Assembly (NCBI RefSeq): GCF_014280175.1 | Contig: NZ_CP047931.1 | Span: 1,890,001 to 1,922,000, forward strand | Source: Synechococcus sp. A15-28 | GTDB lineage: Bacteria > Cyanobacteriota > Cyanobacteriia > PCC-6307 > Cyanobiaceae | Length of the DNA: 32,000 nucleotides | Direction: 5' to 3' | In this document: one piece after another, positions 1-14,765 of the stretch | How positions within the stretch are numbered: position 1 is the first letter of the stretch | Layout of the letters: the number at the start of each line of letters is the position of its first letter | Translations under genes and position numbers: made by a program | The notes under the pieces: generated by a model | Databases searched by the model: none | What the model was told of the DNA's origin: nothing | Seen by the model: the letters and a program-made list of their open reading frames with translations, nothing else

Positions 1-2892
1 GATCTTGAGGAGGTCTGGAGCATCGGCCGCGAGGAGAAGCCAGAGCTGGCCCGCAGTGTGGTGACAAGCCCAGTCCCCCAGGAGCTCAGAAACCGTGGTG
101 TTGAAGGCTTATCGCTCCGTGGTGAATTCGGTCGCTGGCTGAAGGCACGCGAACGCTGGCTCTCGGCAGAAGACCTCTACCGAACCCTGAAATGGAAGGA
201 CGACCTCTACCAAGAGGTGATGGGTCACATCCTCGAGATGCTGTCGGCATGGGGCCTTGTGAAGACCGTGGACGTGCGGCTTGGCCGCAAGGCTCGTGAG
301 GTGATGCAAGGTTGGCGCCTCAACAGCACTGCTCTGCGTTGGACTCTGGTGGACCCGGAATCACCACCTCAGGACCGCTACGCCGCGTGTTTGGAACAAG
401 TGCGGCAGAACAGTGGGCGACGTGGGCCGGTCAACCCCTACTTCCGAAGTCTCTACGCCGACCTCGCCCATCTGATCGCAACAGAAGGCCGACCATTCCT
501 GCAGACGCTGTCCGCACGGGAGCACACAGCCCAAGTGGATGCGAGTGAGCGCGAACGACGGGAAGATGACTTCCGCAGTGCTGCCCTGCGGCTGATGTAC
601 TGCTCACCCACGATGGAATTGGGCGTTGATATTTCATCGCTCAACACTGTTTACATGCGCAATGTGCCGCCCACGCCGGCGAACTATGCGCAGCGCAGCG
701 GACGCGCCGGCCGTAGCGGGCAACCAGCTCTGGTGTTGAGCTATTGCGGTGCCACCTCACCCCACGACCAGTACTTTTTTGCGGATCCAGTGCGGATGGT
801 GGCGGGTGCTGTAAGTGCTCCAACGCTGGAATTGGCCAATGAAGAGTTGCTCAAGGCCCACTTCCGGGCGCTTTGGCTGGCAGCCACTCGGCAGCGCCTG
901 CCCGGGAAGGTGAAGGAGCTGGTGAACATCAGTGCCCCAGGGCGGCCAGTTCAAGCAGAGCTGATGGAGGCCCTCTCCAGGGATGAGGCCTACCGCTCAG
1001 CCCAGGCTGATTGCCAGGCCATCGTTGACGACCTGATCGAGAAGCAATGCCTCGGAAGCACGCCACCGCCATGGCTCACAGGCAGCTGGCTAGAAGCGAT
1101 CACCCATGGCGCCGCGCTGGATTTCGAGGCCGCGCTCAGCCGCTGGCGTGAGCTTCTTGAGGCAGTGGATGGTCAGATCAACCAGGCACTCAAAGATCTG
1201 GGGAACCACGCCATCAGCGAGCGGGAGCGTCTGGCCGCCGACACCCGCCTCAAAGCAGCACGAATGCAACAACAGTTGCTGCTGGCGGATAAGCCAGGAA
1301 GCGGCAACAGCAACAACGACTTCAGCACCTATCGCTACCTGGCAAGCCAAGGCTTCATGCCGGGGTACAACTTCCCGCGTCTGCCGCTGATGGCGTACAT
1401 CCCTGGCACACGAGAACAAGTGGGCGGCGGCACTTACATCACTCGCCCGCGGTTTGTCGGCATCAGTGAATTCGGTCCCCACTCACTGATCTATCACGAG
1501 GGGAACACCTACAAGGTGAAAGGTGCACTGCTGGGGTTGCAGGACAACGCGGCTGCAGCCGGATCAGCCACCCTCGCCACGCAGGACGCCTTGGTGTGTG
1601 GGGCCTGCGGCCATGCCCATCTCGGTAATGCCGCTGAATCAGAACTGTGTTGCCACTGCGGCACACCGCTGAAGCTGCATCCCGAGGGCAAAGCCGTTCG
1701 GATCCCAAAGCTGTATCAAATCGAGCAGGTCACCACGAGGAGAGCTGATCGGATCACCTCCGACGACGAAGAACGGCAACGCCTCGGCTATGAGCTGATC
1801 ACCACCTACGAATTCCCCAAGGACAACGGGGTGGTGAAAGTGGCGAAGGCCCAGGTGAGCTGCGAGGGGCAGCCGTTACTGGAGCTCAGCTACGCACCAG
1901 CTACGCAGATCAGCCGGGTGAACCTCGGCTGGCGGCGGCGGGAGAACAAAAACGACATGGGCTTCCCGATCCACCCGATCAACGGACAGTGGGGCGGCGA
2001 GAAAGACATGCGTGGCGATGCGGCCGACGACGACGGCCCAGAAGTGGGCTTCGTGAAGATCACGCCCTACGTGCAGGACCGCAAAAACGCATTGTTGGTT
2101 CGCTTCCTCGGGGAATGGGAGCCGCAACAGCTGGTGAGCGTGAAGAGCGCGATCAAACGGGGCATCGAAGTGGCATTTCAGCTCGATGGCAGTGAGGTGG
2201 CAGCTGAGCTGATGCCCAACGAAGAATCAGCAACGGCGCTGCTGCTCTATGAATCAGCAGAAGGTGGTGCGGGCGTTCTAAGCCGACTGGTGGAAAGCGC
2301 CAGCGCTTTGCAAGCCGTGGCCAAAACCGCCCTCGAGATTTGCCACTGGAGTTGGGACGGCAAGGTGCCCGCCCTCGAATCCCAATTGATCAACTCAGAT
2401 CCCGACTGTGAGGCGGGCTGCTACCGCTGCCTGCTCGGTTATCACAACCAACGCGATCACGACCTGATTGATCGCCAGCTCACCGAGCTCAAACAAGTTC
2501 TGCTCGATCTGGCGCGCTGTGAACTGGTGGGCCAGGGCGGAGTGGATAGCCGCAGCGCTTTGCTGGAGCGGCTCAAGGGGCTAGCCGGCAGTGGTCTGGA
2601 AAGGCTCTGGCTCGACACCCTTTACCGGCATGGCCACACGCTTCCTGACAACGCTCAACAGGAGGTGCCGGGTCACTACGTCACCCCAGACTTCACCTAC
2701 AAAGAGGCTTGTGTTGTGGTGTTCATCGATGGACCCCATCACGAGAAACCACTGCAGCAACGGCTGGACCAGCAGAAGCGCCAGGGCCTGATCGATGCAG
2801 GGATCTCGGTTGTGGTGTTTACCCAGGACACCACTAGTTGGCCTGAGGTTTTAAGCGAATACAGCTGGTTGTTTGGTGAGGGGAAAGGTTGA
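1..2892 (+). CDS. SF2 helicase (C-terminal half) fused to a DUF1998/MZB-type zinc domain and a C-terminal DUF559/Vsr-like endonuclease-fold domain. It is DrmA+DrmB-like or DruE-like. The 5' end lies outside the window.
   Basis: Frame 1 is open from nt 1: DLEEVWSIGREEKPELARS precedes the GTG at 58, so track ORF 58..2892 is 5'-truncated by the window. Helicase motifs V/VI are TMELGVDISSLNTVYMRN and QRSGRAGRSG (nt ~691-720). The Cys clusters CGACGHAH..CCHCG and DPDCEAGCYRCLLGYHNQRDHDLIDR (nt ~2398-2475) fit the DUF1998 signature as I remember it. The last ~100 aa (TPDFTY..VVVFIDGPHHE..RLDQQKRQGLIDAGISVVVF) look like a DUF559/Vsr-type PD-(D/E)xK domain. Confidence 0.8.
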   Translation, partial: DLEEVWSIGREEKPELARSVVTSPVPQELRNRGVEGLSLRGEFGRWLKARERWLSAEDLYRTLKWKDDLYQEVMGHILEMLSAWGLVKTVDVRLGRKAREVMQGWRLNSTALRWTLVDPESPPQDRYAACLEQVRQNSGRRGPVNPYFRSLYADLAHLIATEGRPFLQTLSAREHTAQVDASERERREDDFRSAALRLMYCSPTMELGVDISSLNTVYMRNVPPTPANYAQRSGRAGRSGQPALVLSYCGATSPHDQYFFADPVRMVAGAVSAPTLELANEELLKAHFRALWLAATRQRLPGKVKELVNISAPGRPVQAELMEALSRDEAYRSAQADCQAIVDDLIEKQCLGSTPPPWLTGSWLEAITHGAALDFEAALSRWRELLEAVDGQINQALKDLGNHAISERERLAADTRLKAARMQQQLLLADKPGSGNSNNDFSTYRYLASQGFMPGYNFPRLPLMAYIPGTREQVGGGTYITRPRFVGISEFGPHSLIYHEGNTYKVKGALLGLQDNAAAAGSATLATQDALVCGACGHAHLGNAAESELCCHCGTPLKLHPEGKAVRIPKLYQIEQVTTRRADRITSDDEERQRLGYELITTYEFPKDNGVVKVAKAQVSCEGQPLLELSYAPATQISRVNLGWRRRENKNDMGFPIHPINGQWGGEKDMRGDAADDDGPEVGFVKITPYVQDRKNALLVRFLGEWEPQQLVSVKSAIKRGIEVAFQLDGSEVAAELMPNEESATALLLYESAEGGAGVLSRLVESASALQAVAKTALEICHWSWDGKVPALESQLINSDPDCEAGCYRCLLGYHNQRDHDLIDRQLTELKQVLLDLARCELVGQGGVDSRSALLERLKGLAGSGLERLWLDTLYRHGHTLPDNAQQEVPGHYVTPDFTYKEACVVVFIDGPHHEKPLQQRLDQQKRQGLIDAGISVVVFTQDTTSWPEVLSEYSWLFGEGKG

Positions 2893-2926
2893 TGTTTGAC
2901 AGCACAGACCGGCTCGGAGGCCACCT

Positions 2927-5896
2927 ATGACCCTTTCAACTCTTACCGCAAGTCCGGTCGACATCCCGAGCCCCGGTTCGATCGTGAAGGTGCGCGGGCG
3001 TGAGTGGATCGCCCTGCCACAGAGCAGCACTGAGAAGCAGGAGCAGGTGCTCAAACTTCGGCCCCTGGGAGGTGGAGATCAGACGATCGCCACCTTGTAT
3101 TGGCCGCTGGAGGGCGCAGCGGTGAAGCCGGCCAGCTTCGATCCGCCGGATCCAGCCCAAAGTGGCTCACAAAGTTCGGCGTTGCTGCTGCGGGATGCCC
3201 TGCTGCTCAAACTCCGCGCTGGCGCAGGGCCGTTCCGCAGCCTCGGCAATGTGGCCCTGGAGCCACGGCCCTACCAGCTGGTGCCGTTGTTGATGGCGCT
3301 GAAGCAAGCCGTCACCCGGGTGCTGATCGCCGATGAGGTGGGGCTTGGCAAAACCGTGGAGGCGTTGCTGATCGCCCGGGAGCTGTTGGATCGCGGCGAG
3401 ATCCGCCAGATCACCGTGATCTGCCCACCACACCTCTGCGAAAAATGGCGAGTCGACATGACCGGCCAGTTCAACCTCGCCGCAGAGGTGGTTCGTCCTG
3501 GTACCGCCCAGAAGCTGGAGCGAGGGCTGCCGGCGGGCAAGTCGATCTTCGATGTGATCCCGTTCACCGTGGTAAGCCTTGATTGGATCAAGAGCGATCG
3601 CAACCGGGAGAGCTTCCTGCGCAGTTGCGGTGAGTTCGTGATCGTTGATGAAGCGCACACCTGCGCGGCGCGCAAAGGTGGCGGACGCCAACAGCGCTTT
3701 GAACTGCTGCGTGGGTTGTCGGCCCAGCCCGATCGACATCTGGTGCTGCTCACGGCCACACCCCACAGCGGCGATACCGAAGCGTTTGACAACCTTCTAG
3801 CGCTGCTGGACCCGAAATTCTCCGGCTTGAGCGAGATGCCGGAAGGTCAACGGCGCAAGGACCTGCGCGATGACCTGGGCAACTACTTCGTGCAGCGGCG
3901 CCGGCAAGATCTCAAGGAGGAATGGGGCACCAACGGCGCCGACTTCCCGGACCGGGAAACACGGGAGGCGGAGTACAAGCTCTCGGGCGATTGGGCTGAG
4001 CTGTTTCACGACGTGCTCGGTTACGCCAAGGATCTGGTGCAACGCAGTGCCGGTGAGAGCAAGCTGCGACAGCGCATGAGCTGGTGGGCAGCTCTGGCGC
4101 TACTGCGCTGCGTGAGCAGCAGTCCGGCAGCGGCATCCGCCTCGTTGCGAACAAAGTTGCTCAACCTGCAAAGCGACACCAAAGGTGATCGCGACCGGGA
4201 TGACAACCAAGTTGCCGACGACCTGGAAGCCATGGCTGCCCTGGCGGTGCTGGATGGAGCCGACGAGGGATTCAGTGGAGAAGAAGCAGCACCCGGTGCT
4301 GATCTGGCCATTGCCGAAGACGAGGAGCAACTCCAGGATCTGATCGCTCGAGCCGATCTCCTGCGCGGCAAGGCACACGACCCCAAGCTCAAGCAGCTGA
4401 TCAAGGAGCTGAATGCCTTGCTCAAGGAAGGCTTTCGCCCGGTGATCTTCTGCCGTTTCCGGCCGACGGCGTATTACCTCGCCGAGCAGCTCAAAGAGGC
4501 ACTGCCAAAGCGCAGCCACGTGGTGACGGCGGTCACCGGTGATCTGCCACCAGAAGAACGCGTCTTGCGCATCCAGGAGCTGGAAGCTGAGGTCGCCAAC
4601 GAGAAAGTCCCGGTATTGGTGGCCACCGACTGCCTGTCGGAGGGGATCGACCTGCAGCACACCTTTGATGCGGTGGTGCATTACGACCTCTGCTGGAACC
4701 CCACCCGCCATGAACAACGGGAGGGCCGGGTGGACCGCTTCGGGCAGGCGCGAACAGCTGTTCGGGCGCTGATGTTGCACGGCGGCAGCTCCAATCCCGT
4801 CGACGATCGGGTGCGCACGGTGATCCTTGAAAAGGAGAAAACGATCCGCAAGGAGCTGGGGGTGAGCGTGCCGATCCCCGGCAATGCCAACTCAATCACC
4901 CAAGCCGTCCTCAGCAACATCCTGCAAGGACCAGCCCAGACCATTCAGGGGAGCTTTGATCTCGAGCTTGCGGGAGACACCACGACGCAATTGGCACTTG
5001 ACGCGACGATCGATGCTGAATGGACGAGTGCCAAAGACAACGCCAAGAAGAACCAGGCGATCTTTGCCCAACGGAGCCTCAAACCAGAGGAGGCGCTCGG
5101 CGAGTGGGAGCGGATGAAGGAGTCGTTGGGGAGTGAAGACGCCGTCGAGCGATTGGTGGTGAATGCCAGCCGGCGGCTCAACCTCCCAATCGGCCCCATC
5201 GGTGCAAGCCCCGGAACCTGGGAGCTGGATCTCAGCCGACTGCAAGACGACCGCACGGCCCTGCGGGAGCGCCTGCGCAATCACGACCTGGAGGGCAGGT
5301 TGCGCCTGAGCTTCCGCTCACCCGCTCAGGCTGGAGGCCAACTGCTCAGCCGCTCCCATCCGCTGGTGGTGGAACTTGCTGACTTTGTGGCCGAGCGTGC
5401 CCTCAGCGGCCTGGAACCCGAGTTGGCGGCTCGGGCCTCGGTGATTCGCACCAAAGCCGTGAGCCGCCGCACCCAGTTGCTGGTGCTGCGGCTGCGGCAT
5501 CAGCTGCATCAAGACCGTTGGACCGGGAATGGCTACGACGCACTCCCCGATCTGCTCGTGGAGGAATGCCTCACGGTGGAGGTCAAGGAGCAAAGCGTTG
5601 AACCGCTGGAGGGAGCCACCGCACTGGAACTGCTCGAAGCGGCACCCACGGGCAACGTGGACCCTGGCCAACGCCAGCAGTGGCTGAAGGATGCCGTCGC
5701 TGGTCTTGATGCCTTGCAACCGGCACTCAAGGCTCTGGCTGAACGGCGGGCCCAATTAGCAGAAGACGACCACCGCCGCGTCCGCGAAGCCTCCTTGCGC
5801 CGCGGTGAATCGCTGCGGATGCGCTTCAACTGCGAACCCGCCCCGGCCGTGGATGTGATCGGCCTGTTCCTGCTGCTTCCTGCCCCAACCCTTTGA
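2927..5896 (+). CDS. SNF2-family (SF2) helicase/ATPase, DISARM DrmD-like
   Basis: 989-aa ORF with GGAGG about 9 nt upstream of the ATG at 2927. A full motif set is present: I ADEVGLGKT (nt ~3329-3355), II VIVDEAH (nt ~3638-3658), III LLTATPHSG, V VLVATDCLSEGIDLQ, VI HEQREGRVDRFGQ. It starts 34 nt after the upstream gene. Confidence 0.88.
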   Translation: MTLSTLTASPVDIPSPGSIVKVRGREWIALPQSSTEKQEQVLKLRPLGGGDQTIATLYWPLEGAAVKPASFDPPDPAQSGSQSSALLLRDALLLKLRAGAGPFRSLGNVALEPRPYQLVPLLMALKQAVTRVLIADEVGLGKTVEALLIARELLDRGEIRQITVICPPHLCEKWRVDMTGQFNLAAEVVRPGTAQKLERGLPAGKSIFDVIPFTVVSLDWIKSDRNRESFLRSCGEFVIVDEAHTCAARKGGGRQQRFELLRGLSAQPDRHLVLLTATPHSGDTEAFDNLLALLDPKFSGLSEMPEGQRRKDLRDDLGNYFVQRRRQDLKEEWGTNGADFPDRETREAEYKLSGDWAELFHDVLGYAKDLVQRSAGESKLRQRMSWWAALALLRCVSSSPAAASASLRTKLLNLQSDTKGDRDRDDNQVADDLEAMAALAVLDGADEGFSGEEAAPGADLAIAEDEEQLQDLIARADLLRGKAHDPKLKQLIKELNALLKEGFRPVIFCRFRPTAYYLAEQLKEALPKRSHVVTAVTGDLPPEERVLRIQELEAEVANEKVPVLVATDCLSEGIDLQHTFDAVVHYDLCWNPTRHEQREGRVDRFGQARTAVRALMLHGGSSNPVDDRVRTVILEKEKTIRKELGVSVPIPGNANSITQAVLSNILQGPAQTIQGSFDLELAGDTTTQLALDATIDAEWTSAKDNAKKNQAIFAQRSLKPEEALGEWERMKESLGSEDAVERLVVNASRRLNLPIGPIGASPGTWELDLSRLQDDRTALRERLRNHDLEGRLRLSFRSPAQAGGQLLSRSHPLVVELADFVAERALSGLEPELAARASVIRTKAVSRRTQLLVLRLRHQLHQDRWTGNGYDALPDLLVEECLTVEVKEQSVEPLEGATALELLEAAPTGNVDPGQRQQWLKDAVAGLDALQPALKALAERRAQLAEDDHRRVREASLRRGESLRMRFNCEPAPAVDVIGLFLLLPAPTL

Positions 5897-5899
5897 GCC

Positions 5900-8800
5900 A
5901 TGGCCCGCACCACCGCCACCGTCAGCTTTCAGGCACTCGAACTCAAAGGCAGCCTGCTTCCGGCATCCCTGCTTGAGGAGGTGTCCAAGTTCAGCCGCCC
6001 GAAGGAGCTTCTGTTGGAGCCGAAGGACTACGGCTTGGGCAAAGGCGAAGGCTTGCGGGAGCGGATCGATGCCGCCTGGGTGCTCACCAAAGAACTGTGG
6101 GAGGAGTACACCGATCTGAGCGATCGGGCGGGGAAGAGCATTGCAGGGCAGCACTTCGGTACCCGCTTGCTCAAGGAGGTGTTCGGCTGGAGGAGCACCC
6201 AACCCTGCAACGGCTGGCAGCAGGGCGAATCGCACTATCCGATCAACGCCCGCGCCTTTGATGGCGCGGTGCCCGTAATCCTGCGAGGGCTCGACCCAGA
6301 CGATCTCGATCGTGGCAGTGCCCAGTTCGGCCAGGAGGGGCGGAAGCGATCGCCCCATAGCTGCCTGCAGGAATGCCTCAACGCCGACGACGATGCGAAT
6401 TGGGGTGTGCTGCTCAGCGGCGATCGGCTGCGGCTGTTGCACGACAACCCCTCGCTGGTGAAACCTGCGTATCTGGCTGCCGATCTTGAGCTCTTGATCG
6501 AAGGCGGGCTGCACGCCGAATTCGCCGTGCTCTGGTTGCTGCTCCACTCCAGTCGTTTTCAGCACCCCCAAACGGGCAGCTGTGTTCTCGATGACTGGAA
6601 ACAACAGGCGGAAGCCTCCGGTGAACGGGTGCTCGGGGCCTTGCGCGGCGGCGTGCAGAGCGCCTTGGAATCACTGGGCTGGGGCTTCCTCAATCACCCA
6701 AGCAATGGCGAACTGCGGGAGGCGTTGCGAAGCGGACAACTCAGCCGCCAGCAGTTCCACGAGCAGCTGCTGCGCTTGGTCTATCGGTTCCTGTTCCTGT
6801 TCACCACAGAAGATCGCAACCTGCTTTTCCCCCGCGAAGTCGACAAGACTGACGCACGCCGGCGGATCTACCAGGAGGGCTACAGCGTCAGCCGGCTGCG
6901 GGAGCTGGCGATCAAGCGCAGTGCCTATGAAGGGGACTACGGCGATCTCTGGGAGCTGCAGCGGCTGGTGTTCCAGCAGCTGAGCATTGGCAACTCACCG
7001 CTCGGTCTGCCGGGCCTGGGCGGATTGTTCAGCCTGGAGCAATGCCCAGATCTGCAGGCCGCGGAGCTCTGGAATGGGCCCTTGCTGCGGGCGATCAAAG
7101 CGATCGGCTGGTTCGACGCCGACGGCAGCTTCACCCGGGTGCGCTACCGCGATCTCAACACTGAAGAGCTGGGCAGTGTGTATGAGGGCCTGCTTGAACT
7201 GCATCCCCAGCTGGAGCCGCAGGGCAGCCAATGGCAGCTCAGCTATGGCGGTGGTGCCGGCAGTGATCGCAAAACCACCGGCAGCTACTACACACCCGAT
7301 GCCTTGGTGCAGGAGCTGATCAAGAGCGCTCTGATCCCGGTGATCGACGACCGGCTCAGCAAGGCCCATGGCCAAGCGGAGCAGGAACAGGCTCTGCTGA
7401 ATATCAGGGTGATCGACCCGGCCTGCGGGAGTGGCCACTTCCTGTTGGCGGCGGCTCGGCGCTTGGCAGTGGCCCTCGCCCAGGTGCGCGCAGGCGATGA
7501 CCAACCCAGCGAAGACGACCGCCAGCACGCCCTACGCGATGTGGTGGCCCATTGCATCTACGCGGTGGACAAAAACCCAATGGCGGTGGAGCTGTGCAAA
7601 GTGGCGCTGTGGATCGAAGCGATTGATCCCGGCAAGCCGCTGAGCTTTCTGGATGCACACATCCAGTGCGGGGATTCACTGGTGGGGGTCTTCGACCCGA
7701 AGGTGTTGGAGGAAGGCATCCCGGATGGGGCCTACAAGCCACTCACCGGTGACAACAAACCGGTCTGCACGAGCCTGAAGAAAGAGAACGCCGCAGCACG
7801 CAAGACCATCAGCCGGCGCGGCTCCAATCGGGGCATTCAAGGGAGCTTGGCTCTCAGCGGCACGCAACCCCGCAGCCAGGGGCAACAGGACTTGCAGGCG
7901 ATCGAGGCCATGCCAGAAACCACCCTGGCAGAAACGGCGTCCAAGCAGGCTGCCTACGCCCAATGGCTCTCTGATCGAGGCCAGGATCCAGAGACGTTGG
8001 CTGCTGATCTCTACACAGCAGCGTTTTTCCTAGCGAAAACAAGCGATTCGCGCCCCACGGTGCCCACCACAGAGCACCTACTCAAACTCCTCGCTGGTCA
8101 ACCCGTTGATGAAGCGATGGAAGAGGCCGTTGTTGAGGCGGCCCAGAACTTCCGCTTCTTCCATTGGCACCTGCGTTTTGGCGAGGTGATGGAGCAAGGC
8201 GGCTTTGATTGCGTCCTGGGCAATCCGCCTTGGGAGCGAATTAAAATCCAAGAAAAGGAATTTTTTGCTCAGAAAGACGGCGAGATTGCCAAAGCAAAAA
8301 ACAAAAGTGAGCGAGCGAAGCTTCTCGAAGAGTCACTTTCAGGGAATCGCGGGAGACTTGCACTGGCTGCCGCGAATGAGTTTTTTGTAGCAAGGCGAAG
8401 CGCAGAGGCATCAGGCTTGATCGCGCGCTCTGCCCTTTTCCCTCTAACGAGCAAGGGCGACATAAACCTATACGCCTTATTCGCCGAACGATGCTGCCAA
8501 GCCTTGATATCCAGGGCAGGCATGTGCGGCGTAATCGTGCCAACAGGTATCGCCACAGATCTACCGTGCGCCGACTTTTTCTTTGATCTTATTAAAGACA
8601 GAAGAATCATATCAATCCTTGACTTTCGCAACAAAGGATTCTTCCCAGGCGCCGCTGGCGCACAAGGCAACCGCTTCTGCTTATTTACATTTGGGTCAAA
8701 AGATATCTCCAGACAAGACACACTTCTTGCATACAGGCTCGAGTCAATTGACGAATTACGTGACGAGCGCAGATTCTCTCGAATTACAGCTGATGACATA

Positions 8801-9820
8801 ACACTACTCAATCCCTCCTCAAGAACATGTCCAGTCCTAAGATCAAAGTTTGATTTTGAGCTAACAAAAAAGATCGCTCTTAGCAATACAAACCTAGATT
8901 CAAGCATCAGCGACTGGGATATTAACCTCGGGAGAATGTTTGATCTAGCCAATGACAGTGACTTGTTCAAGCAGGACGATCACAGCCTTGACATACCTGA
9001 CAATCACCTTCGACTTTACGAAGCCAAAATGGTTCATCAATTTGATCATCGTTTTGGCGATTACTCGCTAATTAAAAACCCGAAGCCACAGACGGTCAGG
9101 CAGCTTCCAAATCCATCTATAGATCTTTTAGCTGAAACGGGTTACATGGTCAGAGGAGCTTACTTAGTTGATCGGGAACACGTGGAATCATGGCTGGACG
9201 ATCAAGGATGGACGAGAAAGTGGCTTTTAGGCTGGAGAGATATCACCAGCGGCCTTGATGAAAGAACTGTAATCGCGTGTGCGTTACCTGTAGCCGCTTA
9301 CGGAAATACTCTCCCGCTGATGATGCCAAGACACACGGCAGTTGAAAGCTGCATTCTTCTCGGCCTTCTTAATTCGATTACATGTGATTACATTGCCAGG
9401 CAAAAAGTCGGTGGAGTCCACCTGACTTTCTTCATCCTTAGACAACTCGCAATACCTTCTCTTTATGGCATACCTAAAGGCTTAGGTTTCGAGTTGGCGA
9501 AGCGTGTAGCCGGCATTAGCTGCCATAGCAAAGATATGTTCGAACTTAGAGAAGAAATATCCTCTGATCTGCAACTGACTCTTATTCCCTTTGGGCACCC
9601 GCGGCTTGTTGCACGGGCTGAGATTGAAGCCATTGCTGCCAAGATCTACGGCCTAACAAGGGATGAGTTGCGTTACATCCTTGATCCCACTGATGTAATG
9701 GGGCCCGATTACCCTAGTGAGACCTTCAGGGTGCTCAAGAAAAATGAAATACGTGAGTTTGGTGAATATCGAACTCAACGGTTAGTACTCGAGGCGTGGG
9801 ATCGCCTATTCGGGAACTGA
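5900..9820 (+). CDS. Large gamma-class N6-adenine DNA methyltransferase (Eco57I/PglX/DrmMI-like) with a long C-terminal region, presumably for target recognition
   Basis: 1306-aa ORF starting 3 nt after the SNF2 stop. The AdoMet motif I is VIDPACGSGHFLLAAARRL (nt ~7409-7465). The catalytic motif IV is GNPPWERI (NPPW = nt 8222-8233). The size and motif order match type IIG/BREX/DISARM adenine methylases. Confidence 0.88.
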   Translation: MARTTATVSFQALELKGSLLPASLLEEVSKFSRPKELLLEPKDYGLGKGEGLRERIDAAWVLTKELWEEYTDLSDRAGKSIAGQHFGTRLLKEVFGWRSTQPCNGWQQGESHYPINARAFDGAVPVILRGLDPDDLDRGSAQFGQEGRKRSPHSCLQECLNADDDANWGVLLSGDRLRLLHDNPSLVKPAYLAADLELLIEGGLHAEFAVLWLLLHSSRFQHPQTGSCVLDDWKQQAEASGERVLGALRGGVQSALESLGWGFLNHPSNGELREALRSGQLSRQQFHEQLLRLVYRFLFLFTTEDRNLLFPREVDKTDARRRIYQEGYSVSRLRELAIKRSAYEGDYGDLWELQRLVFQQLSIGNSPLGLPGLGGLFSLEQCPDLQAAELWNGPLLRAIKAIGWFDADGSFTRVRYRDLNTEELGSVYEGLLELHPQLEPQGSQWQLSYGGGAGSDRKTTGSYYTPDALVQELIKSALIPVIDDRLSKAHGQAEQEQALLNIRVIDPACGSGHFLLAAARRLAVALAQVRAGDDQPSEDDRQHALRDVVAHCIYAVDKNPMAVELCKVALWIEAIDPGKPLSFLDAHIQCGDSLVGVFDPKVLEEGIPDGAYKPLTGDNKPVCTSLKKENAAARKTISRRGSNRGIQGSLALSGTQPRSQGQQDLQAIEAMPETTLAETASKQAAYAQWLSDRGQDPETLAADLYTAAFFLAKTSDSRPTVPTTEHLLKLLAGQPVDEAMEEAVVEAAQNFRFFHWHLRFGEVMEQGGFDCVLGNPPWERIKIQEKEFFAQKDGEIAKAKNKSERAKLLEESLSGNRGRLALAAANEFFVARRSAEASGLIARSALFPLTSKGDINLYALFAERCCQALISRAGMCGVIVPTGIATDLPCADFFFDLIKDRRIISILDFRNKGFFPGAAGAQGNRFCLFTFGSKDISRQDTLLAYRLESIDELRDERRFSRITADDITLLNPSSRTCPVLRSKFDFELTKKIALSNTNLDSSISDWDINLGRMFDLANDSDLFKQDDHSLDIPDNHLRLYEAKMVHQFDHRFGDYSLIKNPKPQTVRQLPNPSIDLLAETGYMVRGAYLVDREHVESWLDDQGWTRKWLLGWRDITSGLDERTVIACALPVAAYGNTLPLMMPRHTAVESCILLGLLNSITCDYIARQKVGGVHLTFFILRQLAIPSLYGIPKGLGFELAKRVAGISCHSKDMFELREEISSDLQLTLIPFGHPRLVARAEIEAIAAKIYGLTRDELRYILDPTDVMGPDYPSETFRVLKKNEIREFGEYRTQRLVLEAWDRLFGN

Positions 9821-9821
9821 T

Positions 9822-11048
9822 ATGGCGGTCGTCTCTCTGCCAGCAAGAGCTGCCATTCACCAAGTAGTTACAGCTCTGCGATCCGCAGATTCACTCCATC
9901 CCAACGGCGACACGGTTTTCCTCTCTTTTGCCGATGTTCCGTCGATCGACGTCTTGGCTTTCCTCGGTGCCTGGGGCCTGATGACTCGGAGCTCTGGCAC
10001 CACCATCAAACTGCGGGGAGAAGCCAAAACACTCGCGGCGCTTCAGCTGATGGGATTCCATCAGCTTCTCGATATTCCACCTTCAAGCACCAAAGCCAAC
10101 GTTCAACCTGCCAAGGCATCCACGGTTGGCATGCTGCCCCTCTCACCAATTGCCACGGAAGAACAGCAATACGAAGCCGTTGATGCCATCTGCGCTATCG
10201 CCCTGGCCGCCATCGACAACGCCGCCGCGTTCATCCCAGCCCTGGAATGGCTGGCCAACGAAATCCTCGGCAACATCCTTACCCACGCAGCATCAGAAAC
10301 ACCCGGCGTGGTCTGCGCTCAGTACCGCCCCAAGCAGCAACGCTTCGAGATCGGCATCTGCGACATGGGTCGGGGGCTGCTGGGATCCTTACAACCCGCG
10401 TTCCCAGAGGTACGTAGCTACGGCCAGGCAATTGACAAAGCGATCGAGCGCGGCGCGACTCGTGATCCCGCTATCGGTCAGGGCAATGGCATGGCCGGCT
10501 CCTTCGAGATCGTGCGCCTCAACGGCGGCACCTATCAGATCTGGACCGGTGATGTCGTCTACGAACTCAACAAAGGCAAGCGCCGCCCCGGTTTCCAGGC
10601 CATGCCGTCTGTCCTCGGGACAGGAGTGATGTTCTCGCTCGACACCAGCAAACCCGTTGATCTCGCCAGCACCTGGATCGCCTCCAATTCAGGGGTGGAA
10701 TGCCTCTTCCTCAATCTCCTCACGGAATCCGCCAGCGACAGCGGACTCGATGTCGCCGCTGAATGTCTCCACACCGGTGGGCGCGCCCCCGCCAAGCTGC
10801 TGCGCCGGAAAATCCAGGGGTTGCTGCCTGCCATGGAGGGCGAACCGCTGATCCTTGATTTCTCAGGTGTGAAATCAGCAGCCAGCAGCTTCCTCGATGA
10901 GCTGCTTGGTCGGCTCGCTGCAGAAGACCCGCGCGGGCAGGCGATCTTCGATGGAGCAGTGCGCATTCAAGGGATGAATCCCACTGTGCAAGCCATGGCC
11001 AATGTGGTGGTGGCGCAGCGGTTGAGGGGGTCGGTGCAAGCCCAATAA
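9822..11048 (+). CDS. GHKL (histidine-kinase-like / SpoIIAB-like) ATPase with a C-terminal STAS-like DUF4325-type domain and a possible N-terminal STAS-like domain
   Basis: 408-aa ORF whose ATG lies 1 nt after the methylase stop (TGAtATG). Bergerat-fold boxes are present: N box EWLANEILGNILTHA, G1 ICDMGRGLLG (nt ~10362-10380), G2 GQGNGMAGSF (nt ~10477-10500). The C-terminus LILDFSGVKSAASSFLDELLGRL matches my memory of DUF4325. The N-terminus (FLSFADVPSIDVLAFLGAW..LQLMGF) resembles an anti-sigma-antagonist/STAS fold. Confidence 0.8.
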   Translation: MAVVSLPARAAIHQVVTALRSADSLHPNGDTVFLSFADVPSIDVLAFLGAWGLMTRSSGTTIKLRGEAKTLAALQLMGFHQLLDIPPSSTKANVQPAKASTVGMLPLSPIATEEQQYEAVDAICAIALAAIDNAAAFIPALEWLANEILGNILTHAASETPGVVCAQYRPKQQRFEIGICDMGRGLLGSLQPAFPEVRSYGQAIDKAIERGATRDPAIGQGNGMAGSFEIVRLNGGTYQIWTGDVVYELNKGKRRPGFQAMPSVLGTGVMFSLDTSKPVDLASTWIASNSGVECLFLNLLTESASDSGLDVAAECLHTGGRAPAKLLRRKIQGLLPAMEGEPLILDFSGVKSAASSFLDELLGRLAAEDPRGQAIFDGAVRIQGMNPTVQAMANVVVAQRLRGSVQAQ

Positions 11049-11066
11049 ACCTTGCCCATTAGGGCA

Positions 11067-11393
11067 TCACTCCCCCGCCTGAATCTCACGCACCACCTCA
11101 TCGATCTGATCACTCAGATCAATCTCACCGTTCTGGCCAGCCAGCTCAGCAAAACAGCGCCCCTGTGGCAACAAACGGCTCTGCGCTGAACCCACCGCCG
11201 CGTTGAAGCTCTTGTTCAGGCGATTCAAATGGCTGCCGATGTCGTTGAACTTGTGGAGCAAGATCAAAAAGTCGACCAGAGCAAATCCGAAATTAAAGAG
11301 CCCTTCAGGAACACAACTCCACTCCAGATCCATTACACAAAGCATCAACAAAAGATGCCTGATCAAGGTAATAACAGGACCAGAAAGAGCCAA
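11067..11393 (-). CDS. Hypothetical small protein with a hydrophobic N-terminal half (possible membrane protein)
   Basis: 108-aa ORF starting 1 nt downstream of the stop of the 11395..11775 gene, so the two form a likely two-gene operon. Hydrophobic stretches are PVITLIRHLLLMLCVM and GLFNFGFALVDFLILL. I recognise no family. Confidence 0.45.
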   Translation of the reverse strand: MALSGPVITLIRHLLLMLCVMDLEWSCVPEGLFNFGFALVDFLILLHKFNDIGSHLNRLNKSFNAAVGSAQSRLLPQGRCFAELAGQNGEIDLSDQIDEVVREIQAGE

Positions 11394-11394
11394 A

Positions 11395-11775
11395 TCACTC
11401 CTCCTTGCGATTTTTTATAGGCAACCAATCCTCTGTGTAGGTGGTCTTCCACCTTGCTTTTCTCCACCTTGCCAACATGACCTCTCCCCCATACCTCTTG
11501 ATGAGGTCATGGAGCGTTATGCCACCAAGGTCACAACCATCAACGGGACAAGCAAGGATAAAGGTATCGCCTTTACGGGCATATCCCATAACCGCTTTGT
11601 GCTTCCCGCACCTTGGGCACACACACCTGTATGTTTCTTTCCCATTGAAGTTGTCTCTTCGTTTAATCCCATTCAATCTGTGAGACATCTCCAAAAAGAA
11701 TGGATACTCAATATGCAAATCTGTTCTGAACTTGTATCCCATAAGATTACTCCTATTGTTACTGATTGCTAACAT
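11395..11775 (-). CDS. Hypothetical zinc-ribbon protein (CHC2 primase-like Zn-finger pattern), phage/island-type
   Basis: 126-aa ORF in AT-rich DNA. The segment CVCPRCGKHKAVMGY..FILACPVDGCDLGGITLHDLI resembles the CPxH/C..CxxCxxxG pattern of primase-type zinc fingers. The competing plus-strand 189-aa ORF (11203..11772) has a non-protein-like composition. Confidence 0.55.
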   Translation of the reverse strand: MLAISNNRSNLMGYKFRTDLHIEYPFFLEMSHRLNGIKRRDNFNGKETYRCVCPRCGKHKAVMGYARKGDTFILACPVDGCDLGGITLHDLIKRYGGEVMLARWRKARWKTTYTEDWLPIKNRKEE

Positions 11776-11828
11776 TCAGCTGTATTTAACACCCAAACTC
11801 TTATAGATAGAGTGGGCATGTGATTTTT

Positions 11829-11885
11829 GGACTCTTAAAGAACTTAGAGGCCCTTAAGGGTCGCCATAAAGAGTCCCCTTAAAGG
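11829..11885. promoter_or_regulatory. Nested inverted repeats with three CTTAA(A/G)G copies in a divergent intergenic region; candidate operator
   Basis: GGACTCTT (11829-11836) pairs perfectly with AAGAGTCC (11869-11876). The perfect palindrome CCCTTAAGGG (11851-11860) lies inside that stem. CTTAAAG, CTTAAGG and CTTAAAG start at 11834, 11853 and 11878. Confidence 0.35.
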
Positions 11886-12009
11886 CCAAAAGACATAAAT
11901 ACAAAAAGAATGTCATTTAAAATGTAGATACCTTGTGCATCTAAGACGTATTCCAAAGAGAGGCACTACTGCCCTTGTTATCATCCATAGCAAATCTATT
12001 TACCAAATC

Positions 12010-12183
12010 ATGAGCATTAAGACACCAACTAAGCAAGATACTTTTACTATCTCCTACCAAAGACAAGAAGCAAAGAAGGTGATAGGAATGGAATATGAGT
12101 TAATGGAGCACTTTGGTTTTAACCGATCACAACTCCATAAGAACCTAGTCAGAGATGCCTACAGAAAAATGTCGATGCTTTGA
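12010..12183 (+). CDS. Hypothetical small protein, possibly ribbon-helix-helix (CopG/Arc-like)
   Basis: The track ORF is 11935..12183 (GTG start). I prefer the ATG at 12010, giving 57 aa. The pattern FTISYQ (beta-strand) followed by EAKKVIGMEYELMEHFGFNRSQLHKNLVRDAYRKM (two helices) is RHH-like. The assignment is weak. Confidence 0.4.
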   Translation: MSIKTPTKQDTFTISYQRQEAKKVIGMEYELMEHFGFNRSQLHKNLVRDAYRKMSML

Positions 12184-12213
12184 TCAAAATAATACCGAAG
12201 TCACGAACAACAA

Positions 12214-12519
12214 TCAGTAGAGTTGGATATGAATGATATGCAGCTGATCTTCTATACTGTTGTAATCCTGAATTTTTTGCATTAGAGGAATCATACTTTC
12301 CTCTTTTACATTCCACGTAGTTGTAACGCCGCCATTACTCCCCTGCCATTCAGCACCATCACCAAGACTTTTCATAATATCGTCAATATCATCCCTTTCA
12401 TCCAGAAAGATCTTTTGACGCTTCTCTTCGTCAGCAAAAACGGCAATTAAATCTTCGGTCTTGTTGTCATAATCACAATAAAGACAAAGGCAATAGGTCC
12501 TGGAATTCGTTTTAGACAT
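12214..12519 (-). CDS. Hypothetical acidic protein (island cargo)
   Basis: 101-aa ORF in AT-rich DNA, convergent with the 12010..12183 gene. I recognise no motif. Confidence 0.45.
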   Translation of the reverse strand: MSKTNSRTYCLCLYCDYDNKTEDLIAVFADEEKRQKIFLDERDDIDDIMKSLGDGAEWQGSNGGVTTTWNVKEESMIPLMQKIQDYNSIEDQLHIIHIQLY

Positions 12520-12850
12520 AATAAATAATTAGAAATACGCTTGGTATCGAAATTTACCGATTCAATCTCGAAAGAAACTTGCTAGAAATCAATTGCAGAC
12601 AAGAGCGCCCGAGGAGCGAAGGCTTAGAGGGCAAAAGGTATTTAGTTTGTATCAAGCGGAAGGATGAATCCTTTATTTCGATGAGTTGATTATAGCACTT
12701 TTTCACTAAAAGAGCAACATTCAAACCTTCATGCTTACCCATTGGCCTTCTTCCTACTTGTTAGTCCTGGGCAATGACTCCATAGCAATCCATCTATTCA
12801 GCGTTAAAAGAAGCACCCCTTATCCAGGTCAGTGAGGCGAAGGATAATGC

Positions 12851-13228
12851 TCAAGGCACCATCCAGTCGTCTTCTCCCATCTCAACGCCTGCAAGGAGTT
12901 CAGCCGCAGCAGCGATCTTTCCTTGATCACTGATCCAGTGAGCGGCAGCATCAAACTGCCGCTTGTTCATGCGCTCAAGACCTACCTCCCTGTGCAGATC
13001 GCTGAACTCTTGGGCACAACGCAGCATCAGGCATTTGAGCAGCAGGTAGTGGTCGTCAATGGAGGAGTCCTCGAATACCTCCCTCACGATCCCGTTGGCG
13101 ACTGAGCTGTAGTACTGCTTGGTCGTTTTTTTATATGCCTTTTTCTTAGCAGCAGACTTCTGTGCTTTACGAAGCAGGTGCTCCAGGTCCTTGTCGGATG
13201 GAACGAGGTTGTCGTCTGCACTTCTCAT
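12851..13228 (-). CDS. Hypothetical protein translationally coupled to the integrase (Lys-rich N-terminus)
   Basis: The track ORF is 12851..13285. The internal ATG at 13228-13226 overlaps the integrase stop (minus-strand ATGA, plus-strand TCAT at 13226-13230... tca 13228-13230), giving 125 aa that begin MRSADDNL. Confidence 0.5.
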   Translation of the reverse strand: MRSADDNLVPSDKDLEHLLRKAQKSAAKKKAYKKTTKQYYSSVANGIVREVFEDSSIDDHYLLLKCLMLRCAQEFSDLHREVGLERMNKRQFDAAAHWISDQGKIAAAAELLAGVEMGEDDWMVP

Positions 13229-14499
13229 CAGATGCACAACCCATACTGCTGGAGCAGTTCTCCCCACTGCTCTAGAAACTCCCAACGTTCATCGAGATAT
13301 TCAGCACCGTCATAGGCCTTGCCACAAGCACCTTTAGGCAGATGCCCCATCTGACGCTCAATCACCACCTCTCGTGCCTTGAGGACATCGACTCCATAGG
13401 TGCGGGCAACTCTTCTCCAGCCATGAGCTCGCTGTATTCCCCGGTAGCCAAGAGCAATGAGATAACTATTTGGAGCACCAGGATCGAGATGGGGACGTTG
13501 ACCCACCTGAATTTGGGGGAATACAAAAGTGCCTTTGCCATGCAACTGCTCCATCTGATCCAACAGAGACCGGATAGAAGCCGTCAACGGCACCACATGC
13601 TGAATGTCATCGCTTTTCCCCTTTCTGCGCTTCAACCCAGGTGTGTCGCCTGGAATTGCGATGACATCTGGGGTCACCCAGTCCCACTGCAGACGAGTCA
13701 AGCTGCCTGCACGCAAAAACGTCAAAAGCATCAACTTTGTTGCCGCAACCGTGGTGGCGTGGACGTTGGGACGATTTAAAGAGATGTCCTCAAGCAATTT
13801 GGGGACTTGATCCCACTCCACACAGGGATGATGCTTCGAGCTACTAGTTGGTGAGTCATCACCGACTAAACGAACGGCTGGATTCTCGCCACGACGCATC
13901 CAATCCCTGCCTTCAGCGAGATTGAAACACTGCTTTAAAAGGTTTTGACATCGACGAGCCAAATCCCCCTTACCATTCACTCCAATAACATCAATTGCAT
14001 CCATGACGATCTTCCTCCCACCATTGCTCCATTCAAGTGAACGAATGGGTGTTGACGGGGAGATGATGGTCACCACTTGTTCGAGCTTCAGACGATATTC
14101 CCTGACAGTTGCAGGCTTAATGGTGCGCTCTTTAAGCTCTAAAAACTTATCGACAACAAAAGAGAGTACTTTTTCCTCTTGAATTGACTGCTTTTGGATC
14201 TTCCAAAAGTCGCCAGGATCTCGGTCATTCTCAAGAGACCATTGCTTGATCTCGCTCCACTTCTGATGGGCAGATACAAGGGTGAATTGACCTGGTTTTT
14301 CTCCAAAAACGCCAATCTGGCACTCTTTCGAGACAGGCTTCGATTGGCCTGGAAGCCTCCGCTGCATCCTGCCAACAAAGTAAATACTCCCTTTGCTTGA
14401 GCGAGGGTCACGTACGGCAAGCAACCCATTGCCGCAGGCCCGCCGAGTCTTGTGATCCAGGAGAGATAACTCCTGGATCTGCTTCTTGGTTTTGATCAT
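13228..14499 (-). CDS. int: Tyrosine recombinase / phage integrase, P4-like, with an N-terminal DUF4102-type arm-binding domain
   Basis: 423 aa. The N-terminus GNGLLAVRDPRSSKGSIYFVGRMQ..FTLVSAHQKWSEIKQW fits the P4-integrase arm-binding domain. Catalytic residues are plausible: LTFLRAGSL (R), RAHGWRRVART (H-x-x-R), MGHL..KAYDG (H..Y). Confidence 0.88.
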   Translation of the reverse strand: MIKTKKQIQELSLLDHKTRRACGNGLLAVRDPRSSKGSIYFVGRMQRRLPGQSKPVSKECQIGVFGEKPGQFTLVSAHQKWSEIKQWSLENDRDPGDFWKIQKQSIQEEKVLSFVVDKFLELKERTIKPATVREYRLKLEQVVTIISPSTPIRSLEWSNGGRKIVMDAIDVIGVNGKGDLARRCQNLLKQCFNLAEGRDWMRRGENPAVRLVGDDSPTSSSKHHPCVEWDQVPKLLEDISLNRPNVHATTVAATKLMLLTFLRAGSLTRLQWDWVTPDVIAIPGDTPGLKRRKGKSDDIQHVVPLTASIRSLLDQMEQLHGKGTFVFPQIQVGQRPHLDPGAPNSYLIALGYRGIQRAHGWRRVARTYGVDVLKAREVVIERQMGHLPKGACGKAYDGAEYLDERWEFLEQWGELLQQYGLCI

Positions 14500-14511
14500 G
14501 AGACTTCTCCC

Positions 14512-14700
14512 TTACGCTACGCAAGAGAGACGCTTCAAATAATCGTCAATATCGTCAACAGCCCAACGCACCATCCGCGAACCAATCTTGAGAGGGCGAG
14601 GGAAATCCCCCGCATCCATGCTTCGATAAATCGTGGAGCGAGACATGGAGACCAGGACACTAACCTCTTTCAAGGTCAGCAACTTCTTGTTCAGATTCAT
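14512..14700 (-). CDS. AlpA-family helix-turn-helix regulator/excisionase
   Basis: The track ORF is 14512..14766. I place the start at the ATG at 14700, giving 62 aa (MNLNKKLLTLKEVSVLVSMSRSTIYRSMDAGDFPRPLKIGSRMVRWAVDDIDDYL), which is typical AlpA/HTH_17 length and pattern. The longer version would overlap the predicted -10 box. Confidence 0.8.
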   Translation of the reverse strand: MNLNKKLLTLKEVSVLVSMSRSTIYRSMDAGDFPRPLKIGSRMVRWAVDDIDDYLKRLSCVA

Positions 14701-14765
14701 AATTAGGACAAGTAAATATAAATTAGCCGGAAACTTTATTGCAATCGATCCGACATTTCTTCTCA

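Follow-up and report, generated by a model that had tools for sequence, protein, structure and literature searches.

We analyzed a 32,000-nucleotide (nt) stretch of the genome of Synechococcus sp. A15-28 (contig NZ_CP047931.1, positions 1,890,001 to 1,922,000, read on the forward strand), here called the window, which opens with four consecutive plus-strand genes, ORF1 to ORF4. Nucleotide coordinates are window positions, and L-numbers denote related loci. ORF1 (nt 1 to 2892) is open from nt 1 to a TGA at nt 2890 to 2892, leaving 963 amino acids (aa) visible, and it is followed by ORF2 (nt 2927 to 5896; 989 aa), ORF3 (nt 5900 to 9820; 1306 aa), and ORF4 (nt 9822 to 11048; 408 aa), each with an ATG start. 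An earlier reading of the letters alone (the sequence-only reading) had pointed to the tight spacing of these four same-strand genes, and the ORF coordinates and our direct reading of the junctions bear this out, with gaps of 34, 3, and 1 nt. The first junction reads TGA, 34 nt, ATG, with a GGAGG 5 nt before the ORF2 ATG; the second reads TGA-gcc-ATG and the third TGA-t-ATG. ORF4 is translationally coupled to ORF3, and the four genes form one defense-type operon. We consider it probable that the locus is an ARMADA type I antiphage operon that lies in a genomic island of a cyanobacterium and is enlarged by one gene, ORF4.

Because the ORF1 frame has no stop codon from nt 1 onward, the window start truncates the gene, which runs off the 5′ end of the window; its listing as nt 58 to 2892 with a GTG start is a window-edge artifact, arising because the ORF caller demands a start codon. 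At the other end of the operon, a promoter and terminator scan 3′ of ORF4 gave nothing better than shuffled sequence. The domains that the sequence-only reading had assigned to the four proteins (DUF1998, SNF2, methyltransferase, and GHKL) were all upheld by Pfam, supplemented for ORF4 by motif conservation and by the GHKL fold of its AlphaFold model.

By its domain content, the visible ORF1 represents the last 963 aa of an ArmC-like helicase-nuclease of the YprA family in which helicase and DUF1998 parts are fused. Pfam returned Helicase_C (3.9e-12) and MZB/DUF1998 (8.9e-10), with DUF559 falling below the cutoff (0.004). The best PADLOC match was DruE (DruE3; 1.6e-53), as against 5.4e-9 for DrmA and 9e-4 for DpdJ, and the NCBIfam DrmA model gave 14 bits against a cutoff of 950, so that the earlier suggestion of a single polypeptide of the DruE kind held good. 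The second RecA-like domain, with motifs V and VI, lies at nt 508 to 720 (Pfam Helicase_C at aa 170 to 240; QRSGRAGR at nt 691 to 714). Two CxxC pairs, CGAC and CCHC, follow at nt 1597 to 1659, N-terminal of DUF1998; their cysteines (C533, C536, C550, and C553) are invariant in our alignment, and the pairs probably form a zinc module. Bell et al. (2025, bioRxiv 10.1101/2025.09.15.676423) report one such module as an insertion within the OB region of the YprA helicases of ARMADA type I. The MZB/DUF1998 zinc-binding domain itself occupies nt 2143 to 2433 (PF09369, aa 715 to 811), with CYRC at nt 2419 to 2430 and with C803, C807, and C810 invariant in the alignment.

The remainder of ORF1 carries a Vsr/DUF559-type (PD-(D/E)xK-related) nuclease domain (nt 2593 to 2889), with PDF at nt 2686 to 2694 and IDGPHH at nt 2725 to 2742. 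In an alignment with 24 relatives, D897, Y900, D923, G934, and W947 of this domain were invariant, and D910, G911, P912, and H914 were conserved in at least 90%. An AlphaFold model of aa 820 to 963 had a pLDDT confidence score of 85. Foldseek matched it to the catalytic domain of I-Bth0305I (3r3p; template modeling [TM] score of 0.63 to 0.68 by target, probability of 0.98 to 0.99) and to the DUF559 protein 3hrl (TM score of 0.52), in both cases with weak E-values; 3hrl is also the match reported for the "active? Vsr domain" of ARMADA type I (Bell et al. 2025). Searching PDB sequences with the domain gave no match. We accept the C terminus of ORF1 as a Vsr/DUF559-type fold, as modeled, and infer nuclease activity from it. 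The fold and its conserved D/D/H residues agree with the earlier view that ORF1 carries a nuclease-like domain other than PLD, and this Vsr-type domain is the likely effector of the system.

As a stand-in for the missing 5′ part of ORF1 we used locus L066, where the ORF1 homolog is 91% identical and is preceded by 10 kb of sequence. Its helicase ORF (L066 positions 7571 to 13018) is at most 1815 aa long and comprises DEAD (aa 93 to 274), Helicase_C (985 to 1050), MZB (1525 to 1621), and DUF559 (1696 to 1753) domains, the last at 20.4 bits against a cutoff of 20.6. The approximately 700 aa between DEAD and Helicase_C are consistent with large insertions, and ARMADA type I helicases carry BrxA-like, beta-barrel zinc, and MarR-like insertions between their two RecA-like domains (Bell et al. 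2025). Full-length ORF1 relatives elsewhere measure 1600 to 1690 aa and likewise stand first in their operons. The genes 5′ of the L066 helicase are of housekeeping types (an SDR/enoyl-reductase-like protein, a Vgb-lyase-family protein, and a PLP decarboxylase). The sequence-only reading had raised the question of whether a PLD gene precedes the operon, and none was found within the 7.5 kb 5′ of this ortholog.

On its motifs and matches, ORF2 is an SNF2-family helicase of the ArmA/BrxHII/DrmD-like kind. Pfam recognized SNF2-rel_dom (5.9e-10), ResIII, and Helicase_C (7e-18), and the SNF2 helicase motifs are present on the plus strand as GLGKT (nt 3341 to 3355), DEAH (nt 3647 to 3658), and QREGRVDR (nt 4715 to 4738). 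In PADLOC, ORF2 matched PDLC02853 (labeled DpdE) over its full length at 6.7e-190, followed by DrmD at 1.5e-85 and HmaA at 7e-55, and the NCBIfam models for DrmD and DpdE gave 335 bits against a cutoff of 610 and 176 bits against a cutoff of 500, respectively.

ORF3 is, by the same kind of evidence, a PglX/DrmMI-like N6-adenine DNA methyltransferase (ArmB-like). It matched Eco57I (3.5e-19), N6_Mtase, and MmeI_Mtase in Pfam and DrmMI (9e-64) in PADLOC, whereas mad2 matched part of it at 6e-10; no DrmMI-specific NCBIfam match was returned. The S-adenosylmethionine motif DPACGSGHFL lies at nt 7415 to 7444 (aa 506 to 515) and NPPW at nt 8222 to 8233 (aa 775 to 778). Compared with seven close picocyanobacterial relatives, aa 1 to 800 are mostly 64 to 99% identical, with lower values in a few blocks of L008 and L012, while aa 801 to 1200 (nt 8300 to 9499), 3′ of NPPW, are 11 to 41% identical, and the GC content over this segment drops from about 0.63 to 0.43 to 0.53. 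Because the target-recognition part of a PglX-like or type IIG-like enzyme is expected 3′ of NPPW, we read aa 801 to 1200 as that part, which was probably exchanged by recombination. A swapped recognition segment suggests strain-level variation of the motifs that mark self, which is of interest for cyanobacterial ecology.

The preprint of Bell et al. (2025) describes ARMADA type I as a YprA-family helicase closest to the Druantia helicases and ending in a predicted-active Vsr nuclease (ArmC), followed by a BrxHII/RapA-like SNF2 protein (ArmA) and then by a PglX-like methylase (ArmB). ORF1 to ORF3 fit this description in their content and order. The helicase core and the OB-CON-DUF1998 module are in one protein, in ORF1 as in the full-length L066 ortholog, and the PADLOC scores, together with the Table S1 entries discussed below rather than a tree of our own, place ORF1 on the ARMADA/Druantia and not the DISARM/Dpd branch of helicases. 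The C-terminal Vsr-type nuclease is predicted to be active on the strength of a conserved PDF...IDGPxH...D pattern, a borderline DUF559 score, and fold matches with weak E-values. An SNF2 gene and then a methylase gene follow the helicase, an order that recurred among 80 independent metagenome loci that we chose by ORF1 similarity only: an SNF2 gene stood behind the ORF1 homolog in 57 of the 58 loci that could be evaluated for it, and a methylase gene came next in all 38 that could be evaluated for that.

An "ARMADA Type I helicase" is entered in Table S1 of Bell et al. (2025) for each of two contigs, JAGQBW010000019.1 from Synechococcus sp. HJ21-Hayes and JACVZV010000024.1 from Vulcanococcus sp. 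Clear-D1. These contigs are our loci L009 and L003/L007, respectively, and their homologs of ORF1, ORF2, and ORF4 are 84 to 88% identical to those of the window; the loci nearest to the operon carry the annotations Cyanobium, Vulcanococcus, and Synechococcus, all of them picocyanobacteria. The content and order of ORF1 to ORF3 are therefore those of the already published ARMADA type I and not a new combination. The sequence-only reading had entertained a new combination but had allowed that assignment of the same genes to a defined subtype would remove the novelty, which is what has happened to ORF1 to ORF3; only ORF4 lies outside the published description. STAS, GHKL, HATPase, and DUF4325 are unmentioned in the main text and three supplementary files of Bell et al. 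(2025), and scans of the ORFs in the operon and its flank found no UvrD-like gene for a RelE-GajB-like fourth helicase in or after the operon. On Clear-D1 locus L003 (positions 1 to 1087), a GmrSD_N (type IV restriction-like) gene sits immediately 5′ of the SNF2 gene, in the place of ORF1, such that the listed ARMADA helicase of that contig must lie further off.

Other systems with helicases of these families were considered and rejected. No operon protein matched DruA to DruD, DruM, DruF, DruG, or DruH in PADLOC, which disposes of Druantia I to III. Dpd was set aside on the NCBIfam DpdE score given above and because the window showed neither TGT-like nor ParB-like genes. The sequence-only reading had also named Hma and MADS loci as possible homes for the operon, and neither proposal survived: ORF4 matched no HmaC or MAD model, the HmaA match of ORF2 lay well below those of DpdE and DrmD, and the matches of ORF3 to the MADS models were marginal (the partial PADLOC mad2 match and 21 bits against a cutoff of 720 for NCBIfam MADS2), with no other MAD matches.

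ORF4 is built from three domains. Its AlphaFold model (pLDDT of 87.8, predicted TM score of 0.88) consists of an alpha/beta domain, a GHKL domain, and a C-terminal alpha/beta domain, and 20 relatives were aligned with it over the full length. The N-terminal domain (nt 9822 to 10076; aa 1 to 85) is STAS-like in the secondary structure of the model, with alternating strands and helices, and returned no sequence or fold match. Within it, FLGAWG (nt 9960 to 9977) holds W51, which is kept in 168 of 203 relatives (83%) and is a candidate single-stranded DNA (ssDNA)-stacking residue, by analogy the counterpart of CapK W68 and VapK F54. The GHKL ATP-binding domain (nt 10158 to 10646; aa 113 to 275), recognized by its motifs and by Foldseek, contains an N box (NEILGNILTH, nt 10257 to 10286), a G1 box (DMGRG, nt 10362 to 10376), and a G2 box (GQGNGMAG, nt 10476 to 10499), and about 99% of some 256 to 262 relatives share E147, N151, H155, D181, G183, G185, G221, N222, G223, and G226. 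Its Foldseek matches were GyrB, MutL-family, and Hsp90 structures. These boxes, the modeled fold, and the DUF4325 match of the C-terminal domain confirm the earlier description of ORF4 as a GHKL/STAS protein.

The C-terminal STAS-like domain (nt 10779 to 11027; aa 320 to 402) belongs to Pfam DUF4325 (2.5e-11, aa 326 to 389), with STAS_2 at 8e-5. It bears a serine pair, S355/S356, within SAASSFLDELLG (nt 10875 to 10910); S355 is conserved in 92% and S356 in 98% of relatives, and both lie at the start of a helix (355 to 368) in the model. Substrate STAS domains of the VapK/VapS type have a conserved Ser/Thr where their second helix begins. The VapS fragment in PDB entry 9z7o also matches DUF4325 (6.3e-14), so that VapS and the C-terminal domain of ORF4 fall into one family, and a VapS serine at chain position 66 aligns with S355. 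We take this residue to be the phosphoserine S48, if the 134-residue chain 9z7o_A carries an 18-residue tag.

The significance of this alignment lies in what is known of the relatives. CapK (HTH-STAS-GHKL) is a kinase activated by ssDNA via a conserved aromatic residue, and its phosphorylation target is a conserved serine of the CapS STAS domain (Chambers et al., EMBO J 2026, PMC13373217). VapK (STAS-GHKL) is proposed to act likewise on VapS, freeing the VapC toxin, and VapS with the phosphomimetic change S48E loses VapC binding and antitoxin activity (PMC13373217). By its domains and their order, ORF4 looks like VapK and VapS in one chain; the kinship of its N-terminal STAS and kinase domains with VapK and CapK would be one of architecture and fold only. 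Neither Pfam nor the model revealed an HTH, wHTH, or other CapS-type DNA-binding domain in ORF4. We propose that ORF4 may be a phospho-switch accessory of the helicase-nuclease defense, maybe its on/off switch.

The VapS fragment had no tblastn match in plasmids, and an enterobacterial ORF4 relative had no blastn match in E. coli genomes; with ORF4 as the tblastn query, one plasmid gene was matched, a Nostoc gene annotated simply as a "DUF4325 domain-containing protein," whose surroundings were uninformative. Among phage families, phrog_3364 (unknown function; 2.5e-16) is matched by the GHKL part of ORF4, and IMG/VR viral contig L146 codes for a relative with 30% identity and without the first STAS domain. 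Relatives of ORF4 thus occur on phages, though they seem to be rare there.

We scanned genomes with an ORF4 profile, selecting by ORF4 similarity alone, and obtained 59 loci, 28 of them with near-full-length matches. An ARMADA-like SNF2 and methylase pair stood 5′ of the ORF4-like gene, on the same strand, in 12 of the 28 (13 when a case truncated by the contig end is included), in hosts that included cyanobacteria, Myxococcota, Thiohalobacter, and Acidobacteriota. In four others of the 28 the gene or module lay behind DrmD and DrmMI, bringing to 17 the number found behind an SNF2 and methylase pair. Three loci (L018, L023, and L028) are complete DISARM class 1 systems in the order DrmMII-DrmD-DrmMI-DrmA-DrmB-DrmC, where the module forms the N-terminal ~400 aa of a ~1740-aa DrmA (positions 9938 to 15190 in L018). 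The sole PADLOC match of ORF4, to the N-terminal 350 residues of PDLC02567 ("DrmA," 1750 positions; 6.9e-87), arises because that model includes the STAS-GHKL-STAS module found on some DrmA proteins. In L026 (positions 4559 to 11152) the module is the C terminus of a 2197-aa DruE3-like YprA helicase (2e-173). These fusions to DrmA and to a DruE-like helicase argue for a functional link between ORF4 and YprA-family helicases. Behind the L026 helicase comes a protein with RmrA and CapP-like matches, and ahead of it lie three genes without a PADLOC match.

Elsewhere the neighbors are more varied. An ORF4-like gene lies directly before a type I HsdR gene in L022 (positions 3964 to 7583), after PDC-M27B/C genes in L029 (3918 to 11221), before a gene for a NERD+UvrD protein in L033 (1029 to 7290), and before a PDC-S68 gene in L013 (1642 to 5123), and some relatives adjoin nothing recognizable. 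The four named contexts suggest a general partnership with helicase-type restriction proteins, a helicase-based restriction partner being what they have in common. Within the picocyanobacteria ORF4 is 85 to 87% identical among relatives, about as conserved as ORF1 and ORF2. We found no description of an association between ORF4-like proteins and helicase systems in the literature on DUF4325 or on DrmA with STAS or GHKL. As far as the searched literature shows, then, what is new here is a STAS-GHKL-STAS gene that is recurrently attached to ARMADA, DISARM, and other helicase-nuclease systems.

The position behind the methylase gene is itself variable. One or two unrelated genes lie between the methylase and ORF4-like genes in seven close relatives (L003, L008, L009, L010, L011, L012, and L066); they encode a WD40 protein, DUF2513 proteins, and proteins without a Pfam match, and none of them is present in the window. 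In the distant Thiohalobacter locus L020 the same slot holds an AAA_21/AAA_15 ATPase gene and a 165-aa ORF. This slot seems to be a preferred site at which cargo genes enter the operon. Behind the ORF4-like gene, three of the close relatives carry PsyrTA: L003 (11077 to 14561; PsyrT 4e-249, PsyrA 5e-121), L010 (11242 to 14705), and L012 (12414 to 15776). In L003 and L010 the stop codon of the ORF4-like gene meets the start codon of PsyrT, and L012 has one ORF in between; PsyrTA is absent from the window. A DEAD helicase and DprA-like pair behind ORF4-like genes, considered as an ARMADA helicase in reversed order, was rejected, since the pair is PsyrTA.

How firmly can the locus be called ARMADA type I, and how firmly can ORF4 be tied to it? 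The sequence-only reading took the locus to be DISARM class 1-like, and a noncanonical class 1 system in which DrmA and DrmB have fused, the PLD nuclease has been replaced, and a GHKL/STAS gene has been added would account for the DrmD and DrmMI matches of ORF2 and ORF3, for the "DrmA" match of ORF4, and for the ORF4-like module on DrmA in true DISARM loci; moreover, DISARM shares two proteins with ARMADA besides the YprA helicase (Bell et al. 2025). A relationship to DISARM is thus genuine, but membership of class 1 is not. ORF1 is far closer to DruE than to DrmA, and it holds in one protein the two parts whose separation into DrmA and DrmB is a consistent feature of DISARM (Bell et al. 2025). 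No PLD domain, and hence no DrmC, was detected in the four operon proteins (Pfam, PADLOC, and NCBIfam) or in the larger flanking ORFs (Pfam), the sequence-only reading having noted that no PLD gene follows the operon, nor was a PLD gene seen upstream in L066. The NCBIfam scores for DrmD and DrmA fall far below their cutoffs, and the PADLOC matches to DrmD and DrmMI denote relatedness only, not equivalogs. Finally, the YprA phylogeny of Bell et al. (2025) groups the ARMADA clade with Druantia and not with DISARM, and their Table S1 covers the contigs of two close relatives. We regard a noncanonical DISARM as very improbable. Turning to ORF4, a GHKL clamp or chaperone-like ATPase in the style of MutL, MORC, or Hsp90, which loads or remodels the helicase complex and uses its STAS domains as binding surfaces only, would fit the Foldseek ranking by E-value, in which MutL-family and GyrB ATPase domains come first, and Pfam scores HATPase_c and HATPase_c_2 about equally. 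The GHKL domain is of minimal SpoIIAB size, however, with no transducer domain behind it, and its best target-normalized TM scores (0.68 to 0.70) are with SpoIIAB (1tid and 1til). Its N box spacing, E-x3-N-x3-H, is the SpoIIAB/RsbW pattern, and the conserved serine pair at the start of the STAS helix aligns with the presumed VapS phosphoserine. An ATPase of this kind therefore seems improbable to us, though less so than a variant DISARM.

The strongest competitor is that ORF4 is a separate defense-island module that serves another neighbor, such as PsyrTA, and is here a leftover or a stand-alone sensor brought into coupling with the methylase by deletions. The varied neighbors described above mean that ORF4 could be such an independent module, and this is one of several points that weigh against our reading of the operon and its fourth gene. 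An ORF4-like gene was present in 1 of the 32 ARMADA type I loci with at least 1.5 kb of sequence after the methylase, that one being L066, and absent from the other 31. In all seven close relatives other genes separate it from the methylase, and in three of them PsyrTA follows. CapK/CapS pairs, for their part, are frequently found between a restriction-modification (RM) system and a downstream immune operon (PMC13373217). The HATPase_c and HATPase_c_2 matches of ORF4 are weak and below their gathering cutoffs, and a PDB profile search gave a single weak match, of the C-terminal domain to VapS chain 9z7o_A (E of 0.03); the kinase activity of ORF4, its sensing of ssDNA, and its contact with ORF1 are putative. 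The N-terminal 650 to 850 aa of ORF1 lie outside the window, and type I is itself a predicted system, type II being the only ARMADA type tested experimentally (Bell et al. 2025). On the other side, ORF4-like genes stand behind the methylase, with no PsyrTA, in distant phyla (L004, L005, L020, L024, and L034); the gene is also kept without PsyrTA in L008, L009, and L011, whose downstream sequence is readable, and in the window; DrmA and a DruE-like YprA helicase each occur with the module fused to them; and ORF4 has no DNA-binding domain of the CapS repressor kind. We therefore hold the separate-module explanation to be unlikely, although it deserves more weight than the two preceding ones. Given its occurrence in 1 of 32 ARMADA type I loci and the variable genes in the slot before it, ORF4 is a rare, clade-restricted, and optional accessory of ARMADA type I, joined unusually tightly to the methylase gene in the window.

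For an ARMADA type I operon with ORF4 as its accessory, the following course of events can be envisaged by extension from ARMADA type II, DISARM, and Druantia III. ORF3 would methylate a strain-specific motif on host DNA and so mark it as self. The ORF2 (SNF2) and ORF1 (YprA) motors would engage and translocate on unmarked or replicating invader DNA, and the Vsr-type domain of ORF1 would cut it; as in the relatives, defense would be direct rather than abortive. By homology to VapK/VapS and CapK/CapS, ORF4 would combine the kinase and its STAS substrate in one chain. Single-stranded DNA arising from infection or from the nuclease itself could activate the GHKL domain, which would then place a phosphate on S355 or S356 in the STAS domain at the C terminus. 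Phosphorylation might alter the binding of this domain to the helicase-nuclease and thereby gate its activity, either by lifting an inhibitory contact, as proposed for VapS and VapC, or by licensing the activity.

A broader proposal, which we advance tentatively and think rather less likely than otherwise, is that the ORF4 family is a self-contained kinase-plus-substrate switch that senses ssDNA and licenses or restrains helicase-nuclease restriction machines after translation, with ARMADA type I, DISARM class 1, DruE-like proteins, and HsdR among its partners. If true, it would constitute a control layer undescribed for RM-like defense, unlike both the transcriptional circuit of CapK/CapS and the toxin-antitoxin arrangement of VapKSC. 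ARMADA type I is widespread yet only predicted, and how YprA-family systems (DISARM, ARMADA, and Druantia) avoid self DNA and what triggers them are still being worked out; a kinase-STAS module beside or inside YprA-family helicases leads to the hypothesis that phosphorylation controls the nuclease-helicase. There is also a practical consequence. With ORF4 matching only "DrmA" and ORF2 matching "DpdE" best in PADLOC-DB v2, automatic classifiers may mislabel such loci as DISARM or Dpd.

The DNA to the right of the operon is low in GC content (0.41 to 0.52, nt 11049 to 14900) and includes a tyrosine integrase gene on the minus strand (nt 13228 to 14499; phrog_1, 1.1e-23); this stretch is probably the edge of a mobile island. 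Its small ORFs had no Pfam or PHROG match, and two of them, nt 11395 to 11775 and nt 11067 to 11393 (minus strand), lie 1 nt apart. No tRNA gene was found in the window. Further on are psaL (nt 18275 to 18802; Pfam), an AcrB-family transporter gene (nt 18923 to 22033), psaB and psaA (nt 24393 to 29021; Pfam), and the Rfam psaA leader RNA (nt 28928 to 29119; 191 bits). The presence of psaL, psaB, psaA, and the psaA leader beside the island identifies the host as a cyanobacterium.

Among known systems, Druantia type III provides the best PADLOC match of ORF1, DruE3, which belongs to the same YprA subclade according to Bell et al. (2025), and in L026 a DruE3-like protein bears the ORF4-like module at its C terminus. 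DruE, however, has PLD-like nuclease domains and works in a system with no methylase or SNF2 partner, and the window has no DruH. DISARM class 1 (DrmD, DrmMI, DrmA, DrmB, and DrmC) likewise combines an SNF2 and N6-adenine methylase pair with a YprA-family helicase and DUF1998, and some of its loci carry the ORF4-like module on DrmA; in the window, by contrast, a DruE-like helicase is fused with DUF1998, the nuclease is of the Vsr type and not PLD, and the gene order is different.

VapK has STAS and GHKL domains and VapS is a DUF4325 STAS protein, and ORF4 appears to unite counterparts of all three, arranged in that order, in one chain. Its STAS-like first domain holds a conserved aromatic residue, as in VapK and CapK, and a conserved serine occupies the aligned phosphorylation site. 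The VapKSC and CapKS proteins sense ssDNA and release or derepress an immune effector (PMC13373217). ORF4 differs from them in that kinase and substrate are fused and in that it lacks both an HTH or wHTH domain and a PIN toxin; its sequence likeness to them is established for the DUF4325 part only, and its partner would be a helicase-nuclease restriction system.

ARMADA type II, as in E. coli NCTC 12900, likewise unites a Vsr-bearing YprA helicase with an SNF2 helicase and a PglX-like methylase, and it provides direct, nonabortive defense that requires all of its genes and their ATPase motifs (Bell et al. 2025). Its order is strictly SNF2, methylase, YprA, and then ArmD, a RelE-GajB-like UvrD helicase, whereas the window shows the type I order, lacks ArmD, and has a different fourth gene. 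With ARMADA type I the window shares all three proteins, their order, the Vsr-type nuclease, and the DruE-like helicase. Many cyanobacteria have the reversed ARMADA order (Bell et al. 2025), unlike the window, which keeps the general type I order and differs from type I by its fourth gene, a STAS-GHKL-STAS gene coupled to the methylase.

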